Sequence record: NC_054909.1
Reading direction: 5' to 3' (one strand)
DNA from: Escherichia phage EC121
Length of the DNA stretch: 64,000 nucleotides
In this document: in pieces, positions 29,958 through 45,472 of the stretch
How the letters are laid out: every line of letters begins with the position of its first letter
Position numbering within the stretch: position 1 is the stretch's first letter
The notes under the pieces: generated by a model
Told to the model about the DNA's origin: nothing
The model's input: only the letters and a program-made list of their open reading frames with translations
Databases searched by the model: none
Made by a program: the position numbers and the translations under genes

Positions 29958-30644
29958 TTAAAAATCGTGGGTAGAATCAGCTTCAAGAGCTACTACATAA
30001 TTCGCGTGTTCACCTTCAAATTTAGCAGCACCTTGTTTACCTTTTGCCCAGAGCAGAAGTTTATAATTTCCTGGTTGCATTTTCATATTTGCCATATTGA
30101 TAATGAAATTAAATGTATTTTCACCATCATAATCACCAAGAGTCAAAGAATATTTAACACGGGTCAAAGCAGAATCTTCTACTTTATTAAAACCGTTAAT
30201 TACGATTTTACCTTCTTTTACTGTGATAGCAATTGTATCAATCTGCAGACCACGAGATACACGCAACAGTTGTTGAAGGTCTTCAGCTTTAATTTCAGTA
30301 ACAACAGATGCTACCGGGAATGGAATTGGTTTATTAGGAGCAACTACTGTACTCGGATCGGCTGCTGGCCAAAAAATTGTTGAACGGGCATCAGCAATTT
30401 TAATATTTCCATCTTCTGACTGGGAAATTTCTGCATCATCATTAACTAGAGACAGAATACCGAGAAAACCGTTCAAATCGTAAATTGCTACATCAAAATC
30501 AATAACGTCAGAAATATTTGCTTCCGCATAAGTTGTACCATTAACTGCGCGAGTCATAATAAATTGACCTGATTTAAGCATAATGCCAGAGTTAATAGTA
30601 GCGAAATTTTTCAAAATATTCAGTGTGTCTTTAGATAATTTCAT
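29958..30644 (-). CDS. 45: sliding clamp gp45
   Basis: 228 aa; size and position as in T4. Confidence 0.92.
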   Translation of the reverse strand: MKLSKDTLNILKNFATINSGIMLKSGQFIMTRAVNGTTYAEANISDVIDFDVAIYDLNGFLGILSLVNDDAEISQSEDGNIKIADARSTIFWPAADPSTVVAPNKPIPFPVASVVTEIKAEDLQQLLRVSRGLQIDTIAITVKEGKIVINGFNKVEDSALTRVKYSLTLGDYDGENTFNFIINMANMKMQPGNYKLLLWAKGKQGAAKFEGEHANYVVALEADSTHDF

Positions 30645-31387
30645 TTCAATTTCCTATTTACATAATAGTTAGACCAGGACCGTACAGCACCCTGATAAGA
30701 TTCGTCGTTAAACCCATTAGCTACTGCAATTTTACGAAATTTATTATAACTTGGTTTTCCGTAAGCATGCCATAAAGATTTTAATTCATCTTCATGTTCA
30801 ATCCAAGTTCCTCTAGCTTTAGATTTTCTAAATTTTGATTTGAATTCCGGTAAATTATTTCTAACAGTTGCTTGAATTGAAGCTCTCTGTCTTCTTTCAG
30901 CATTATTCCATAATTCTTTTTGAGATTTAGAAATTTTTGATCTTACACTTTCTGAATTCATTATATCACTAAACTTTTTAGCATAACTACAATCAAGATA
31001 TTTCAATTTCATCTTATTTGAGAGTTTAAGCTTTTTCTCATCGGTCCAGTGATTCTTCATTGAATTAGATATTTTGTATTTTACTTCAGAACTATGTTTG
31101 TAACCTTTACGAATACCGACATACTCAGGCGTAATTTCAGATTGCGAAAGCTTTACAATTTTTCCAGTTAAAACATTTTTATATGTTCCATATCCTTTAG
31201 CACCAATTAAAGTATTTTCATCTGCGTATGCTTTATTAAAATATTTTATATTACTTTTTGCTTTAACTTTTAATTGAAAAAATCTCTCCAATTTTCTTGG
31301 ATCTAATATAGTTTCAGCTAAAATTTTGACGGTATATTTAGTGGTTTTAATAAGTTCAAAATATTCATCGCTATAACTCGATGACAC
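30641..31387 (-). CDS. homing-endonuclease-like protein, N-terminus unresolved
   Basis: 248 aa starting at GTG; NUMOD-like repeats; C-terminal domain shared with the HNH protein at 33867-34721; 44 in-frame codons upstream carry no start codon. Confidence 0.5.
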   Translation of the reverse strand: MSSSYSDEYFELIKTTKYTVKILAETILDPRKLERFFQLKVKAKSNIKYFNKAYADENTLIGAKGYGTYKNVLTGKIVKLSQSEITPEYVGIRKGYKHSSEVKYKISNSMKNHWTDEKKLKLSNKMKLKYLDCSYAKKFSDIMNSESVRSKISKSQKELWNNAERRQRASIQATVRNNLPEFKSKFRKSKARGTWIEHEDELKSLWHAYGKPSYNKFRKIAVANGFNDESYQGAVRSWSNYYVNRKLK

Positions 31388-31525
31388 GCTTCCAGTATAA
31401 ATCTTTCCAGCTGAATCAATTATATTTGTTCCATCGAAAATTGCGTTAATTTTTGAACCTATATAATAACACGGGAAAAATATTTTTAGCTTCCCGCTCT
31501 GGAAAGCTAATAAGATATACTAAAT

Positions 31526-31915
31526 TCATTTATTAAACTCGGCCACAATTGTTTCCGCAACAATTTGTGCAGCAACAATCAGACGTTCATCTGCATTACC
31601 GCAATAATCATCTTCAAGGCGTTCACCACATGAAGTCATAATAAATTTAGCACCGGCGTTTAGGGATTCTGCAGTATGTTTGCGCATTAGTTCAATCCAT
31701 TTATTACTTACTTCACGATCGATAGCTTCATAATACGCATGACGAGCAGGTGCAGATTTAATTTTGTTCTGAATAACTTCCATTGCGTTATCAGAAAGAG
31801 ACAAAACCCATGCGCGACGAATTTTATTTTGGTTTTGCGGATTTGAGTCAGAACGCACGTGTTTTGGCTGAATATCTTTTACATCAACAGTATAATTCAC
31901 AGTAATTTTAGTCAT
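31526..31915 (-). CDS. rpbA: RNA polymerase-binding protein RpbA
   Basis: 129 aa; matches recalled T4 RpbA. Confidence 0.85.
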
Positions 31916-31924
31916 AATACACCT

Positions 31925-32113
31925 TTAGTCATAATAATCAGTAACAGTCCAAGCTTCATTTCTATTGGACATTATTTTTGTATATTCTGCTTTAAATGCA
32001 TTCCTAAGCATAGATTCAGTAACTATATGCTCTTCATTAGAAAAATTATTTCTCAGAATATATCGTTTTATTTCAGGAAAAGTTAATAGATGCTGTCCAG
32101 TTGAATATTCCAT
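31925..32113 (-). CDS. small hypothetical protein
   Basis: 62-aa ORF between gene 46 and rpbA. Confidence 0.45.
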   Translation of the reverse strand: MEYSTGQHLLTFPEIKRYILRNNFSNEEHIVTESMLRNAFKAEYTKIMSNRNEAWTVTDYYD

Positions 32114-32168
32114 GTTTTTCCTCCATAGAGATTATACTCTAATAAATTAAAGCATAATCTCTTATAAA

Positions 32169-33851
32169 TTAAACCATTACAGTAAATCGACCAACTTTCT
32201 TCATTTGAAGATGCTGACCGTATTCTTGCGGGTCATGGTCTTTATGCGAAATTATAAAAACATTAGTGTTTTTCATTGAATTTATAATATTAGCTACACC
32301 TTTAATACCTTCGGCATCAAATGACCCATCAAACACTTCATCGAGTATTAATGTACTAATACTAACACCAGATACAATAGAAGCAATATCACGCCAAGTA
32401 AATAAAAGAGCAATATCAATTCTTGCTTTTTCACCTTCACTAAATGAAGCATAACTAAAATCTTCGCGACCACGGGATTTAATTGTCTCATTAAATTCTT
32501 CATCTAATGTAAACACATAATCCGCTTCCATTATTTTAAGATAATGGTTAATCTGCTTATTAAATAATGGAATGTACTTTTTAATAATAGCACCTTTAAT
32601 ACCAGAATCTTTGAGCATATCAGTCAAAATTCCTCGGTGGTATTTTTCCATTACTAAATTAGTTTTTGTCTTAACAATTTTATCAAGTTCTTCTTGAAGC
32701 AGTGCTATTTCATCAGCATGGTCAATAAACTCAGAAGATGCTTTTTCTATAGCCGCTTTAACCTTTTTAGCTTTATCTACTGTCGTGATTAGAGATTGCT
32801 TTTTATTGCGAATATCATTTGCCAACGACTGTTGGGTTTTAATATTATCTCGGTATTCATCAACAAGAACTTTTAAATTATCACGATGCGTTGAAAGCTG
32901 CTCAAACGAATGCGTGCATTCAGAAACTTTATCTTTAATTTTAGAAACAACTTTATCACCGGAACTCAATTGTGACAAACAGGTTGGACATAATCCACCT
33001 TCGTGATACATATTAATGACTTTATTATACGAGTCAATTTTCGATTTAATTAAAAATGCTTCTTGGCCGATTTTATTAAATGCATCAGTCGGGTCTTCAT
33101 CCAAAACAATATTAACTAATCTTTCATTAGCTTCTTCTATTTCCGATTTTAGCGTTCTAGCTTCTTTTGCTAAATCATCATACATATTTTGCAGACGAGT
33201 AAGGTTGTCACCCGTTAATTTTTTCTGGCGTTCAACGTTATCATTATATATTTTAATTTGTTGGATAATATTATCTTTTTTAACATCAAGCACCTGGTTC
33301 TGCGAATTTAATTCACGTATTAGTGCTTTATTAAGCTTATCCATTTCAGCTAATGTTCCTACCTCAAGCAGGTCTTCCACAAGCTTTCTTCGCGCAGGGG
33401 TCGACAAACCCATGAAAGGGGTATACCCTGCTGTACCAAGGACAACAATCTGCTTGAAACTGGCATATGACATTCCGATAAGCTGTTCAAATTCTGCTTG
33501 GAAATCTTTACTGCTGGCAGATTCATTAAGACGTGTACCGTTAACGGTGATTTCGAAAACGTTTGGTTTTTGTCCTCTTTTGATATAGTACTTTTTCTCA
33601 TCATATTCCATCCACAGTTCAACTAAAAGTTCTTTCTTATTTGTGCTGTTTATTAATTGACCTTTCTTTACATCACGAAATGGCTTGCCAAAAAGCCCAA
33701 ATGTGATGGCTTCTAGCATAGTAGACTTACCACCGCCATTTCGTCCAGTAATAAGAGTTTTTTGAACCTTATCTAATTGAATGTCAACTCCATTTTGACC
33801 AACTGACATTATATTTTTATATTTTACTCTATTAAGTTTAAATGATTTCAT
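32169..33851 (-). CDS. 46: recombination endonuclease subunit gp46 (SbcC/Rad50-like)
   Basis: 560 aa; Walker A GRNGGGKST, coiled-coil middle, CPTC zinc hook, ABC signature. Confidence 0.96.
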   Translation of the reverse strand: MKSFKLNRVKYKNIMSVGQNGVDIQLDKVQKTLITGRNGGGKSTMLEAITFGLFGKPFRDVKKGQLINSTNKKELLVELWMEYDEKKYYIKRGQKPNVFEITVNGTRLNESASSKDFQAEFEQLIGMSYASFKQIVVLGTAGYTPFMGLSTPARRKLVEDLLEVGTLAEMDKLNKALIRELNSQNQVLDVKKDNIIQQIKIYNDNVERQKKLTGDNLTRLQNMYDDLAKEARTLKSEIEEANERLVNIVLDEDPTDAFNKIGQEAFLIKSKIDSYNKVINMYHEGGLCPTCLSQLSSGDKVVSKIKDKVSECTHSFEQLSTHRDNLKVLVDEYRDNIKTQQSLANDIRNKKQSLITTVDKAKKVKAAIEKASSEFIDHADEIALLQEELDKIVKTKTNLVMEKYHRGILTDMLKDSGIKGAIIKKYIPLFNKQINHYLKIMEADYVFTLDEEFNETIKSRGREDFSYASFSEGEKARIDIALLFTWRDIASIVSGVSISTLILDEVFDGSFDAEGIKGVANIINSMKNTNVFIISHKDHDPQEYGQHLQMKKVGRFTVMV

Positions 33852-33866
33852 TTTGTATCCAATTGT

Positions 33867-34721
33867 TCACAATGAAGAAAATTCTTTAACTAAAGCCTGT
33901 AATGAAGCCTCTATTGGATATCCATTCTTAACTAACATTTTCCTAAACATTACATGTTTAGGACGATTATATGATATCCACAATTCATACAATTTATCTT
34001 TATTATCCCAATGATAGCCTTTTCGTCGAGATGCTATATGAGCTTTTCTAATCTCCGGATTTTTCCAACTAGCAGCTACTGAATTTGATATAGCTATTTT
34101 ATATTCAGGTTTTGATAAAGCAGCACGAACAGCCTTTTGGTGTTTAATTTTATTTTCTTCGTTATTAAACCATTCCCTTGAAGCCATTGAAATTTTTTGT
34201 TTTGTTTTAAAATTATTTAATCTTTCTTTATTATCTTTCCTATTTTTTGCTACTGAAAAATATTTTAATGCCCTTTCTCTAGCAGCATTTCTATTTTGCG
34301 GATTTGAATAATACTGTTGAAGCCTTTTTGATATTGTGTCACTTACATCTTGTTTTATAAAACTATATTCAGCAGCTATTAAATCAACTTCGGCTAAAGA
34401 TAAATTTTTATATGTTTTTCCTGACATCATTCTATTTAAAGCATTTAACATTTTTCCATTTTTACCTTTTGCTAATAAGAAGTGTGCTTTAAAATGATTA
34501 AAATGACTTAAATTAACTAAATTCCATGTAGATTTTAAATATTCAGGAAATATTGATTTAGGAAGCACGTGGTGTGCTTCCGTTTTACCTGGAGTTTTAA
34601 CAGTTGAATTCACAGAAATAAAATTAATGTAAGACTTGGCGTCTTCTTCACTCAACGCTAATTTTTCAACTAATTCCTTTATTAAAAATTCATCATTAAT
34701 GTCAAGTTTAAAATTCTTCAC
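33867..34721 (-). CDS. free-standing HNH homing endonuclease (Mob-like)
   Basis: 284 aa from GTG with AAGGA RBS; HNH motif TEAHHVLPKS; NUMOD-like repeats. Confidence 0.7.
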   Translation of the reverse strand: MKNFKLDINDEFLIKELVEKLALSEEDAKSYINFISVNSTVKTPGKTEAHHVLPKSIFPEYLKSTWNLVNLSHFNHFKAHFLLAKGKNGKMLNALNRMMSGKTYKNLSLAEVDLIAAEYSFIKQDVSDTISKRLQQYYSNPQNRNAARERALKYFSVAKNRKDNKERLNNFKTKQKISMASREWFNNEENKIKHQKAVRAALSKPEYKIAISNSVAASWKNPEIRKAHIASRRKGYHWDNKDKLYELWISYNRPKHVMFRKMLVKNGYPIEASLQALVKEFSSL

Positions 34722-40678: not shown

Positions 40679-40814
40679 AAATCATCTGTTTATGTAACTT
40701 GAGTATAAGATAATAAACTTCAAAACCGTTTACATAAGTAACACGAACAACATTACCATTAATAAAATAATATTGTCCCTTTTTTAATTTCTTTATCAAC
40801 CACAACCATATCAA
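40626..40814 (-). CDS. small hypothetical protein
   Basis: 62-aa ORF, first gene after the promoter at 40866-40897. Confidence 0.45.
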   Translation of the reverse strand: MIWLWLIKKLKKGQYYFINGNVVRVTYVNGFEVYYLILKLHKQMICDRAVFSSVAKEIKLHG

Positions 40815-40865
40815 ATCCTCAAAGGCAATTCATGTGTTAATAATACCACAGTTTGAACTTCTTGT

Positions 40866-40897
40866 AAACAACTTTGTGAAAATTATTTTAGGGAATG
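40866..40897 (-). promoter_or_regulatory. early promoter with conserved upstream element
   Basis: CCCTAAAATAATTTTCACAAAGTTGTTTAC, 17 nt, GTATTAT; the upstream element is shared with cassette copies B and C. Confidence 0.55.
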
Positions 40898-40925
40898 ATA
40901 AGAAGGGAACGATAATATACAGAAT

Positions 40926-40948
40926 GTGAGAAAGAAAGGCCCAGAGGG
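40926..40948 (-). terminator. intrinsic terminator after nrdH
   Basis: GGGCC-CUCU-GGGCC followed by UUUCUUUCUC on the minus-strand RNA. Confidence 0.55.
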
Positions 40949-40954
40949 CCCGTC

Positions 40955-41278
40955 TTAGTCTTCTATGATATCTCTATCATATCCAAGTGAAATGAGAGTT
41001 TCTTTGAAGTGTTTAATGTTCTTTTGTCTAGAATCATTAATGAAAATGACTGGATAACGAATGTTAAGAGATGTAAATCCAGCGCGTTTAGCAAGAGATA
41101 CAATCAGTGGACGATCATACTCGATCTTACCATTATTTGTAAGAACTTTATAGAAAGTAAAAGGAGCATTGAGCTCCTTTAGAAGTTTTGTAACTGATTG
41201 ACATCCAGGACAACGACCAACTTCATCTGGAATTCCATAGACTTCAATCTTATTCTTTAAGTTCGAGTTTTGTTCCAC
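40955..41278 (-). CDS. nrdH: glutaredoxin-like protein NrdH
   Basis: CPGC active site in KIEVYGIPDEVGRCPGCQ; no in-frame ATG near the fold start, so a GTG start with AAGGA RBS is proposed (track over-extends to 41407). Confidence 0.6.
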   Translation of the reverse strand: MEQNSNLKNKIEVYGIPDEVGRCPGCQSVTKLLKELNAPFTFYKVLTNNGKIEYDRPLIVSLAKRAGFTSLNIRYPVIFINDSRQKNIKHFKETLISLGYDRDIIED

Positions 41279-42365: not shown

Positions 42366-43192
42366 AATAATATCCAATTTTTCCAAGCTTCATCAGTAGA
42401 ATTACAGCGTTTTAGTATAAGATGTCTAGAAACTTTTATGGCATTTGAGCACTTTTTAATTGAATCATATTTAATACCGTCAACTGAAACGGTTTTGCTA
42501 GTTGGAGAAATTTTTCCATACATTGGATTTTTTGAACCAACTTGAAGTCCTTTTAAAGCTTTTGAAAGCTTTTGTCTAGATTCCAATGACATGGGAGAAT
42601 TCTTTTTACCTTCAATAATTCGCTTGCGATGAAGTTCGCGTTCTTCTTCACTCAAAGAATTGTAATATTTTTTAACACCGTTTGATATAGATAATTTATC
42701 TTTCTCAGACCGCTCTCCAGCTAATTTACTTCTAACATCTTTTCGCTTCATAGCTATGCTTACGGCTTTATTTAAATTTGCTTGATGCTCTGGCGTACGT
42801 TTATATTTCTTTAAAGCACGTGAAATAGCTATTTTAGTTTCTTCTGTTCTCTTTTTACCTTTATTTGCTAAACTATTTTTGCGGCGATGTTCAAGTGTCT
42901 GTTCATAGGCAGTTCCACCTTTTCCACCAGGTTTAATATTATATGTATTTTCTTTTAGACAATACTCTTCGGTTACAAGTTCAGCTTCTTTATCATACAT
43001 TTGTTTTTCATTATCAAAAACATGTAAAATTTCTTTATTAAAATTTTTTCTACCATATTTTAATAAAGCGGCACGAATCAATGTTCCTGACCCCATATAA
43101 CCGTCATTTATGTTATCGGTGCTATGCGCACCGATATATTCCTTTGAATTAATTATATTTGTTATTTTATAAATTATATAATACCTATGCAT
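42362..43192 (-). CDS. free-standing GIY-YIG homing endonuclease
   Basis: 276 aa; canonical YYIIYKITN...KEYIGAH motif, NUMOD-like repeats, C-terminal HTH-like tail; wedged between nrdD and nrdG with overlaps on both sides. Confidence 0.8.
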   Translation of the reverse strand: MHRYYIIYKITNIINSKEYIGAHSTDNINDGYMGSGTLIRAALLKYGRKNFNKEILHVFDNEKQMYDKEAELVTEEYCLKENTYNIKPGGKGGTAYEQTLEHRRKNSLANKGKKRTEETKIAISRALKKYKRTPEHQANLNKAVSIAMKRKDVRSKLAGERSEKDKLSISNGVKKYYNSLSEEERELHRKRIIEGKKNSPMSLESRQKLSKALKGLQVGSKNPMYGKISPTSKTVSVDGIKYDSIKKCSNAIKVSRHLILKRCNSTDEAWKNWILL

Positions 43193-45002
43193 GTTTTACT
43201 CGTTTTACCATTTCTTTCATTTTACCTAAATTCCATGGAACAACGCTAGGAGTTCCAAGATATCCGCATGTTCTTCTTATTGTGTTCATCTTTTTAGGAT
43301 CAGTTTCTCCACAAATAGAACAAACAAACCCGTTTTCAGTAGGAGTCATTTCATGGGTACTTCCGCATGTAAAACACTTATCTACTGGCATGTTAACACC
43401 AAAATAATCTAAATGTTGTGCAGCATAATCCCACACGGCCTCAAGACCTTTTAAGTTATTTTTCATATCAGGAAGTTCAACATAAGAAATGTGACCACCT
43501 GTCGCAATGAAATGATATGGCGCTTCACGAGAAATCTTTTCAAACGGAGTAACATTTTCTTCTACTGAAACGTGGAAACTGTTAGTGTACCAGCCTTTAT
43601 CAGTAACATCCTTTACACTTCCATATTTTTCTGTATCAAGTTTACAGAAGCGATAGCAAAGGTTTTCAGCAGGAGTAGAATACAAGCTAAAAGCAAAACC
43701 AGTTCTTTCAGTCCACTGTTTAAGATGAGCATTCATTTTAGTTAAAATTTCTTGTCCAATATCACGACCGACAAGAATATTCAATTCGTGAATACCAATG
43801 TATCCCAAAGACACTGAACTTCTACCGTTTTTAAATAACTCAATTATGTCGTCATCAGGTTTAAGACGAACCCCAAATGCACCTTCTTGGTAAAGAATAG
43901 GAGCAACAGTAGCTTTAACTCCTTTTAAGGAACTAATTCTACACATCAAAGCTTCAAAACACAAATCCATTCGCTCATTGAATAATTCAGTAAATTTCTG
44001 TTCATTGAATTGTGTTCCAATATAAGAATCTAACGCAATACGAGGAAGATTCAGTGTTACAACACCAAGATTATTACGTCCATCAAGAATTTCATTACCA
44101 GTCGAATCTTTCCATACGCTCAAGAAACTACGGCAACCCATTGGAGAAACAGGAACAGATGAACCAGTGATAGCTTTATTGTTCTTAGCTGAAATAATAT
44201 CAGGATACATCCTTTTGCTTGCACACTCTAAAGCAAGCTGCTTAATATCATAGTTCGGATCGTCTTTATAAAGATTAACACCTTCTTCAACGAACATAAC
44301 AAGTTTAGGGAAAATAGGAGTTATCCCATCACGACCAAGACCTTTAATACGATTTTTCAGAATTGCTTTCTGAATCATTCGTTCAGTCCAGTCAGTTCCC
44401 GTACCAAATGTAATTGTTACAAAGGGTGTTTGTCCGTTTGAACTAAAGAGAGTATTTACTTCATATTCATAAGCTTGGAATGCATCGTATACATCTTTTT
44501 CTGTTTTAGATTGAGCATAATTCAATGCATCAGCGATTTGCCATTTTTCTGCATCCTCAATATGTTTTGCATAGGTGCGTTTAACATAAGGAGAAAGTAC
44601 TTTATCTACATTAGCAAAAGTCGTTCCGCCGTATTGGTGGGAAGCAACCTGTGCAGTAATTTGTGCCATAATTGCAGTAGCAACGCCAATTGATTTAGGA
44701 GTTTCAATCTGCGCATTACCTAGCTTAAATCCGTTCTCAAGCATTCCTTTTAAATCTACTAAACAACAATTAGTAAATGGAAGAGCAGGGGAATAATCAA
44801 TATCATGGAAATGAATAATTCCGCTTTCATGCGCTTTCATAATAAAAGACGGGACCATATTTTTGGCAATGTGTTTAGACACAATACCAGCCATAAGGTC
44901 CCGTTGAGTTGGAAAAACACGAGAATCTTTATTAGCATTCTCGTTCAAAAGGTCTTTATTAGTTTTATGAATCAATCCTTCAATTTCTTTTTCAATTGTC
45001 AT
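43185..45002 (-). CDS. nrdD: anaerobic ribonucleoside-triphosphate reductase NrdD, intronless
   Basis: Contiguous 605-aa ORF; C-terminal glycyl-radical region and zinc ribbon CFTCGS...CSICG. Confidence 0.97.
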   Translation of the reverse strand: MTIEKEIEGLIHKTNKDLLNENANKDSRVFPTQRDLMAGIVSKHIAKNMVPSFIMKAHESGIIHFHDIDYSPALPFTNCCLVDLKGMLENGFKLGNAQIETPKSIGVATAIMAQITAQVASHQYGGTTFANVDKVLSPYVKRTYAKHIEDAEKWQIADALNYAQSKTEKDVYDAFQAYEYEVNTLFSSNGQTPFVTITFGTGTDWTERMIQKAILKNRIKGLGRDGITPIFPKLVMFVEEGVNLYKDDPNYDIKQLALECASKRMYPDIISAKNNKAITGSSVPVSPMGCRSFLSVWKDSTGNEILDGRNNLGVVTLNLPRIALDSYIGTQFNEQKFTELFNERMDLCFEALMCRISSLKGVKATVAPILYQEGAFGVRLKPDDDIIELFKNGRSSVSLGYIGIHELNILVGRDIGQEILTKMNAHLKQWTERTGFAFSLYSTPAENLCYRFCKLDTEKYGSVKDVTDKGWYTNSFHVSVEENVTPFEKISREAPYHFIATGGHISYVELPDMKNNLKGLEAVWDYAAQHLDYFGVNMPVDKCFTCGSTHEMTPTENGFVCSICGETDPKKMNTIRRTCGYLGTPSVVPWNLGKMKEMVKRVKHA

Positions 45003-45472
45003 TTTAAACTCTTTCTAAGCTGCTTCTTGAATGAAGCTATTAATTGTGTTTTGGTGTCAGATTCATTATATTCAAATCCTCTTTGAAGCATCTCGGCCAT
45101 CATTTCCTCTTTTCCTAAACGAGAAAATTCCTTTGATTTATCTCCAACGAAGTTAGGGTGAATATTATTTTGGGTGTAATCGGATTTTAAATAAGTAAGT
45201 AAATTTTCTAACCATTCAAGATAATCAACACCTTGTCCCTTTAAGCCAGAACGATTAAATTTATGCTTCATTTGACCTTCTGCGGCATTGCAGAGATTAC
45301 AAAGCAATCCACGTACCTTTCCTGCTTTTGGTCCATTTAATTCATGGTCATGGTCGAGGTGATTAGCTTGAACGTCAGGATTTAGTTCTCGTTGGCAAAT
45401 TAAGCATTTACCATTTTGTGCATCATAAAATTTCTGTTTTTCTTCTTTGTATAATTTGCCAGTCAATAACAT
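44999..45472 (-). CDS. 49: endonuclease VII (Holliday junction resolvase) gp49
   Basis: 157 aa; zinc-binding CLICQ...CNLCN and H-N-H-like core. Confidence 0.9.
   Translation of the reverse strand: MLLTGKLYKEEKQKFYDAQNGKCLICQRELNPDVQANHLDHDHELNGPKAGKVRGLLCNLCNAAEGQMKHKFNRSGLKGQGVDYLEWLENLLTYLKSDYTQNNIHPNFVGDKSKEFSRLGKEEMMAEMLQRGFEYNESDTKTQLIASFKKQLRKSLK

Follow-up and report, generated by a model that had tools for sequence, protein, structure and literature searches.

I-TevI, the td intron endonuclease of phage T4, is the structural archetype of the GIY-YIG homing endonucleases. Beyond the intron-encoded type, the Seg endonucleases of T4 are described as free-standing GIY-YIG homing endonucleases (PMC2988022), and homing endonuclease genes go through a cycle of gain, degeneration and loss, with defunct copies in T-even phages (PMC2988022; PMC2790892). 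In the 64,000-nt window of Escherichia phage EC121 that we examined (NC_054909.1; "the window" is this whole stretch of DNA, a segment of a T4-like Tequatrovirus genome), the sequence points to one more gene of this kind, between rpbA and gene 45. Specifically, the locus appears to be a free-standing, intron-less Seg-type GIY-YIG homing endonuclease gene, and we judge it probable, at roughly 0.6, that the EC121 copy is a newly inactivated pseudogene, disabled by one extra C at codon 19/20.

Several described systems bear comparison with this gene. T4 SegG (gene 32.1, between genes 32 and 59) is alike over the N-terminal ~100 residues, including the VY, YYIGSK, Y44, E81 and FN98 positions, and both genes are free-standing between two conserved T-even DNA-replication genes and sporadic in occurrence. 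They differ in site (rpbA/45 as opposed to 32/59), in length (295 aa as opposed to 210 aa for SegG) and in the C-terminal two-thirds, which shows no relationship to SegG but is similar to the DNA-binding module encoded by a neighboring HNH gene; further, the EC121 copy is frameshifted. The gene does not appear to be one of T4's own seg genes, the only T4 match in the protein search being SegG, over the N-terminal third. I-TevI is intron-encoded, whereas the Seg-like gene is not, and the latter has no significant sequence match to the I-TevI catalytic domain. Defunct T-even homing endonuclease genes, such as T4 I-TevIII, have in common with the EC121 locus a simple lesion in some isolates and intact versions in relatives, as in the gain-degeneration-loss cycle, but the EC121 case is a single-base insertion without further decay, and this is putative and may be an artefact. 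Literature searches for an endonuclease at rpbA/45 returned nothing specific. The gene is a new, uncharacterised member of the well-known Seg class and would hold nothing surprising for a specialist; it gives a further glimpse of how homing endonuclease genes come and go in T-even phages.

The minus-strand gene order in the window is 44, 45, endonuclease gene, rpbA, 45.2, 46, HNH gene, 46.1, 46.2 and 47, with names taken from the T4 and phage N2 annotation. In T4, rpbA and gene 45 are separated by a 55-bp spacer, and it is here that the endonuclease gene sits in EC121. The features of the locus, in window positions, are as follows.

30641-31529, minus strand: the whole frameshifted Seg-like GIY-YIG homing endonuclease gene, 889 nt here and 888 nt (295 aa) in intact relatives.
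31527-31529, minus strand: the true ATG start, overlapping the rpbA TGA (31526-31528), in the frame adjoining the tracked one.
31446-31529, minus strand: the remnant N-terminal ORF, 27 codons and a TAA, the first 19 residues being the authentic N-terminus with the "GIY" strand V4-Y5-L6.
31473-31475, minus strand: the lesion, an extra C, giving CCC on the coding strand (GGG on the plus strand) where relatives have CC, at codon 19/20, between the GIY and YIG motifs.
30641-31519, minus strand: the tracked frame, comprising residues 20-295 and the stop, preceded by 17 out-of-frame codons (YILLAFQSGKLKIFF.) foreign to the real protein.
31214-31529, minus strand: the GIY-YIG catalytic domain, residues 1 to ~105, split over two frames, with invariant Y5, Y22, G24, K26, Y44, S47, E81 and N98.
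30833-31111, minus strand: a helical repeat region with degenerate NUMOD3-like motifs, residues ~140-232, a putative DNA-binding linker.
30644-30808, minus strand: a C-terminal three-helix domain, residues ~241-295, common to the HNH ORF at 33867-34721 and probably serving DNA-target recognition.
31385-31387, minus strand: the GTG taken as a mechanical ORF start, an internal Val48 codon of the real protein, with ACTGGAAGCGTG upstream and no well-spaced Shine-Dalgarno.
31486-31510, minus strand: a 10-bp hairpin (TTAGCTTTCC-AGAGC-GGGAAGCTAA) with a T-rich tail, in codons 7-15, directly 5' of the extra C.
33867-34721, minus strand: the neighboring HNH (Mob-like) free-standing endonuclease gene, which shares the DNA-binding module; it lies outside the lesion and belongs to the same modular family.

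The first-pass annotation of this DNA had described the frame at 30641-31519 as starting at a GTG, with 44 more open but start-less codons upstream, and this description holds. The frame runs for 292 codons without a stop, the ORF listing places its start at GTG 31387 to give 248 aa, and the 44 codons 5' of that GTG (YILLAFQSGKLKIFFPCYYIGS...GKIYTGS) hold no ATG, GTG or TTG. From base composition, the probability of an open frame by chance is ~0.014 for 44 codons and ~5e-13 for 292, and the long frame is thus not a product of chance. The open extension is closed upstream by a TAG at 31522-31520, which lies 3 nt from the rpbA TGA (31528-31526) and not 4 nt as first stated. Nor is a usable ATG missing, as had been thought: one lies at 31529-31527 in the neighboring frame, overlapping the rpbA stop (ATGA; ...GAG TTT AAT AAA TGA). 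The ORF from this ATG spans 27 codons, carries the "GIY" strand and ends at a TAA at 31448-31446, and the tracked frame then reads on as ...CYYIGSKINAIFDG..., in which FFPCYYIGS, originally called vaguely GIY-YIG-like, is a true "YIG" motif, with Y22 and G24 invariant in 70 family members. The GIY and YIG motifs hence occupy different frames in the window, VYL being followed ~17 residues on by YYIGS, as a GIY-YIG signature split in two. As one extra C breaks the frame, the real ATG falls in the other frame, which explains the missing start codon.

Comparison with relatives locates this extra base. Megablast with the locus as query returned 23 phage records, 97-100% identical, and with a single exception these align over 960 bases as opposed to 961 in the window. 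In a five-way alignment, the window reads TTTTTCCCGTG where the four aligned relatives all read TTTTTCCGTG, and the C is also extra relative to each of the 11 intact CDSs fetched. Likewise, with an 81-nt query centered on the lesion, 22 of 22 records span the site with 80 nt, and none does so at 100% identity. At the same place, 10 of 12 fetched relatives have an annotated intact CDS of 888 nt, its ATG overlapping the rpbA stop and its TGA overlapping the gene 45 ATG; both ends of the endonuclease gene are ATGA overlaps. The annotated homolog start corresponds to locus position 332, overlapping the rpbA end at 335, and the ATG of the intact homologs stands 47 codons upstream of GTG 31387. When one C is taken out, the window encodes a 295-aa protein that is 100% identical to those of SholemSchwarzbard, SHBML-50-1 and S1P5QW and matches relatives annotated as homing endonucleases, and several GenBank records already carry the label "homing endonuclease" for this gene. 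The intact Tequatrovirus alleles (SholemSchwarzbard XNS39955.1, SHBML-50-1 ANN87261.1, PaulHMueller bas45_0164) share the locus and its flanks and are 97-100% identical once the one C is removed; they have CC at codon 19/20 and the full 295 aa in a single frame, whereas EC121 has CCC. The intact 295-aa gene is unannotated in the GiZh and ESh34 (ON528744.1) records.

Over the 961-nt region, EC121 is 99.9% identical to SholemSchwarzbard, and the sole difference is the extra C. The earlier suggestion of a decaying endonuclease gene stands insofar as the gene is disabled by a 1-nt insertion, but not as to accumulated decay, the rest of the 961 nt being identical to SholemSchwarzbard. To judge from the sequence, the locus holds one very recent lesion, or an error, without accumulated decay.

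To distinguish between these two, we compared the window with phage N2, to which it is ~97% identical over the compared part. Of the 77 indel events, the intragenic ones have lengths divisible by three, are compensated in divergent stretches or fall at gene ends, and the only uncompensated one inside a shared, well-aligned gene is the extra C of the endonuclease. Further, 111 of 126 N2 CDSs have a single-frame, near-full-length tblastn match in the window, the rest being absent or replaced genes. At ~40780 (+ coordinates) there is also a 1-nt difference from N2 in the length of a T run, within codons 1-5 of a gene for a hypothetical 60-aa protein as annotated in N2 (CDS 40802-40984), for which the tblastn match covers residues 6-60 only; this is probably a difference in start-site annotation and not a second frameshift. 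The extra C is a singleton, in that no other record or contig carries CCC, and it therefore has no independent confirmation; exact-pattern scans for the CC and CCC variants in IMG/VR, JGI metagenomes and GTDB genomes gave zero matches.

A sequencing or assembly artefact, by which the phage truly carries CC and an intact, functional 295-aa endonuclease gene and the extra C exists only in the deposited sequence, is the main rival reading and in our view unlikely. Nevertheless, a singleton with zero secondary decay leaves it a serious possibility. The 960 surrounding nt are identical to intact alleles, as a base-calling or assembly error would give, and the CCC variant is unique among 22 records, but genes shared with N2, including those with longer homopolymers, contain no frame breaks. 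Similarly, although the extra C is in a short homopolymer adjoining a T5 run, a 2-to-3-base run is not a typical error hotspot, and a single random error, placed anywhere in the roughly 59 kb aligned, would have only a ~2% chance of hitting this 888-nt gene. Artefacts or low-quality records of this endonuclease gene do exist, given that the frameshifted ESh24 copy comes from an UNVERIFIED record, whereas the frameshifts in JM17 and G2285 are in keeping with real frameshifts being tolerated preferentially in dispensable selfish genes. Taken together, a clean assembly, a 2-to-3-base run that is no hotspot and a dispensable gene that is broken elsewhere favor a genuine and very recent mutation, and it is because the lesion would be so recent that the remaining 276 codons are still open.

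If the extra C is genuine, a full-length enzyme could in principle still arise at a low level if peptidyl-tRNAPro slipped by +1 at CCC-G, from CCC onto CCG, which would yield a down-tuned and less toxic endonuclease. Judging from the sequence, such a slip restores the exact wild-type ...F18-P19-C20-Y21-Y22-I23-G24..., with zero substitutions. Yet the arrangement is not conserved: CCC is found in none of 22 relatives, all of which are single-frame with CC, and the upstream hairpin is not conserved between alleles. In prfB-type +1 frameshifting, an SD-like element lies about 3 nt upstream; here, the nearest SD-like sequence, GGGAAG, stands 14 nt 5' of the site, so that the slippery CCC-G has no stimulator in the right place, nor is a pause to be expected, as the next codon, GTG, is neither rare nor a stop. 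CCC-N is described as a spontaneous +1 slippery site for E. coli tRNAPro, used at up to about 1% for CCC-C, and CCC-G as being shifted efficiently in vitro with the UGG isoacceptor, so that the CCC-G at the lesion is a documented slippery context (PMC4519876). The efficiency expected here is 1% or less. We consider recoding of this kind very unlikely. Trace amounts of full-length enzyme from slippage are plausible, and the CCC-G is best seen as possible leakiness as opposed to programmed recoding. It is likewise highly improbable that a real extra C has been retained as a low-output, frameshift-dependent allele (at or below ~1% of normal); were this true, so small an output might still permit homing from time to time, and the phage would be spared the burden of a nuclease whose translation is coupled to rpbA and 45.

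Translation from a non-canonical start, which the first-pass annotation had put forward, would begin at GTG 31387, or at an AUU or AUA in the open extension, and would give a truncated protein that binds DNA but lacks nuclease activity. This we find barely credible. The open frame would allow it, and bacteria do accept GTG as a start, but in all intact homologs this GTG is conserved as the codon of Val48, inside the protein, and the ACTGGAAGC upstream of it has no properly spaced Shine-Dalgarno. The intact homologs all begin not at the GTG but at the upstream ATG on the rpbA stop, and the upstream region is conserved at the protein level, with Y5, Y22, G24 and K26 invariant in the 70 family members. 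A DNA-binding-only fragment is possible in principle, although any such product would miss the GIY and YIG strands, and an exact-protein look-up of the 248-aa GTG product returned no record. The locus is better annotated as a frameshifted (pseudo)gene of a GIY-YIG homing endonuclease, with its start at 31529, than as a 248-aa GTG protein or a gene with an exotic start.

The family assignment is carried by profile and alignment evidence from the repaired protein. PHROG 655, "homing endonuclease," matches it over the full length (E 4e-33), and PHROG 7504, likewise "homing endonuclease," matches residues 1-103 (E 5e-18). Residues 1-102 are 40% identical to T4 SegG, with E 1e-16 pairwise and E 3e-9 by tblastn against the whole phage collection. 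Other searches gave little: a Pfam scan found no GIY-YIG family at E <= 1, an NCBIfam scan found nothing, phmmer against PDB sequences gave a spurious GNAT match only, Foldseek against the PDB gave nothing, and hhalign of the N-terminal family profile with the single I-TevI sequence was not significant (probability 2%). A representative-library phmmer search returned 130 relatives, and a separate protein homolog search only 5. PF19835 (SegE_GIY-YIG) was reached at E <= 0.01 by only 4 of 70 relatives.

Across the 70-sequence alignment, Y5, Y22, G24, K26, Y44, S47, E81 and N98 are all invariant, and after frame repair, we judged V4-Y5-L6 ... Y22-I23-G24 to show the GIY-YIG pattern, in which the motif strands lie about 10-11 residues apart. 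An AlphaFold2 model built on this alignment (mean pLDDT 87; about 98 over the first 40 residues) predicts an alpha/beta GIY-YIG fold, whose order of elements (strand, strand, helix, strand, helix with E81, then N98) matches the I-TevI arrangement. In the model, E81 is in a helix at residues 77-87, after a strand at 66-73, and from this topology, as distinct from a residue-level structural alignment, E81 and N98 may be the counterparts of I-TevI E75 and N90. Unlike I-TevI, the protein has ~25 additional residues behind the YIG strand, and these include an invariant Y-x-G-S. Further, the canonical Arg (R27 of I-TevI) has no obvious counterpart in the endonuclease family, as residues 25-60 contain no invariant Arg and K26, Y44 and S47 are invariant instead, a pattern also seen in T4 SegG; K26 or the Y-x-G-S insertion may stand in for the Arg. 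By sequence, fold, motifs and genomic behavior, the endonuclease qualifies as a GIY-YIG Seg-type member.

The NUMOD-like repeats of the initial description are upheld at the level of the family, where 51 of 70 members match NUMOD3 and the family profile matches the I-TevI DNA-binding domain 1i3j (E 0.002), but in the EC121 protein itself NUMOD3 is sub-threshold (E 0.11, residues 142-158). In the model, helices at 147-232 carry degenerate NUMOD3-like motifs, and the C-terminal ~55 residues form a three-helix domain.

That this C-terminal domain is common to the HNH ORF at 33867-34721, as originally proposed, is borne out by BLASTP (E 8e-11; about 220 aa aligned, with the highest similarity over the final ~45 residues), which pairs WIEHEDELKSLWHAYGKPSYNKFRKIAVANGF of the Seg-like protein with HWDNKDKLYELWISYNRPKHVMFRKMLVKNGY of the HNH protein in that domain. 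Both proteins match PHROG 655 over their full length, the HNH protein at E 8e-45, and the latter also matches PHROG 12434 (HNH) at E 4e-15. T4 Mob-type HNH endonucleases and the EC121 HNH gene have NUMOD3-like repeats and a C-terminal domain in common with the Seg-like protein and differ from it in the catalytic domain, which is HNH as opposed to GIY-YIG. These similarities suggest that one DNA-binding module is borne by two nuclease heads (GIY-YIG and HNH) in the same genome, through module shuffling between classes. The HNH gene (33867-34721, minus strand) is GTG-initiated and located between 46 and 46.1, a position that is empty in T4, where 46.1 directly follows 46.

The insert is carried by 23 of 495 Tequatrovirus records that share the 5' end of gene 45 (matches to its first 200 nt at no less than 84% identity and, with one exception, no less than 90%), and the site is empty, with the 55-bp spacer, in T4, Lutter and SG1; sporadic presence of this sort is typical of a mobile gene. 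The rpbA/45 junction also holds diverged alleles, 54-61% identical, in Mosigvirus (AV114, JM17, G2285) and Gaprivervirus (VR26). In VR26 the first codon is GTG, but the record places the start at an ATG further into the gene and so gives 633 nt and not about 888. A comparison of 12 in-frame Tequatrovirus alleles, those of 11 relatives together with the repaired window sequence, shows 42 variable sites, of which 31 fall at third codon positions, and a median dN/dS of 0.09, which suggests that purifying selection acts on intact copies over all 295 codons, N-terminus included. In other phages, independent frameshifts are found, each at a different position: in ESh24, in JM17 (between EFQK and TYW) and in G2285 (between SKK and MF), the latter two falling at Lys-rich spots, judged at the protein level. 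These broken copies suggest either recurrent inactivation or recurrent homopolymer errors. Hence, an uncharacterised Seg-like gene is found at the rpbA/45 junction in three Tevenvirinae genera and appears to have been knocked out independently at least three or four times. A polymorphism at the N-terminus of gp45 (DTLNIL) was considered as an immunity allele linked to the homing endonuclease gene (HEG) and was rejected, as the HEG-less Lutter and SG1 also carry it.

The history that best fits these observations is that a free-standing Seg-type gene inserted between rpbA and 45 of a Tequatrovirus, replacing the 55-bp spacer seen in T4. Intact relatives would then translate it from the ATG on the rpbA stop to the TGA on the gene 45 ATG, giving a 295-aa product with a predicted N-terminal GIY-YIG nuclease, helical repeats of the NUMOD3-like type and a DNA-binding domain at the C-terminus. 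The element presumably works as the T4 Seg endonucleases do, and, to go by T4 SegG and SegF, the intact enzyme would cut the rpbA/45 region of co-infecting phages without the insert and be copied in by recombinational repair. In EC121, the change from CC to CCC at 31473-31475 would shift the frame, such that translation from the true ATG would halt after 27 residues, before the YIG motif. A selfish gene that is dispensable and may be toxic would be expected to end in such inactivation, which appears to have occurred independently in three other phages at other sites.

The junction itself offers some further observations on local regulation. The HEG-less 55-bp rpbA-45 spacer (T4 segment 4605-4659; also Lutter and SG1) contains TTGCTTTA...TATAAA, which resembles a MotA-box middle promoter, and the Lutter record annotates a promoter in this spacer. 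As the endonuclease gene replaces the spacer, gene 45 loses that putative promoter position in HEG-carrying phages and is ATGA-coupled to the endonuclease ORF instead. No T4 late promoter (TATAAATA) occurs within the locus. The hairpin at 31486-31510 (about -13 kcal/mol) scored as terminator-like, with its T-rich tail, and might dampen read-through out of rpbA. All Tequatrovirus alleles carry it unchanged, but the Mosigvirus allele lacks it and VR26 has another hairpin in its place, and on these grounds we rejected it as a conserved regulatory element or terminator. Finally, N2 carries extra homing-endonuclease genes that are missing from the window or have only distant paralogues there: an HNH gene between 45.2 and 46 (N2 coordinates 31634-32350), two around nrdD (42547-43377 and 44676-45446) and one near 52 kb (1922-2641 of a separate N2 segment). 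The selfish-nuclease complement is thus mosaic between two phages, N2 and EC121, that are otherwise about 97% identical.
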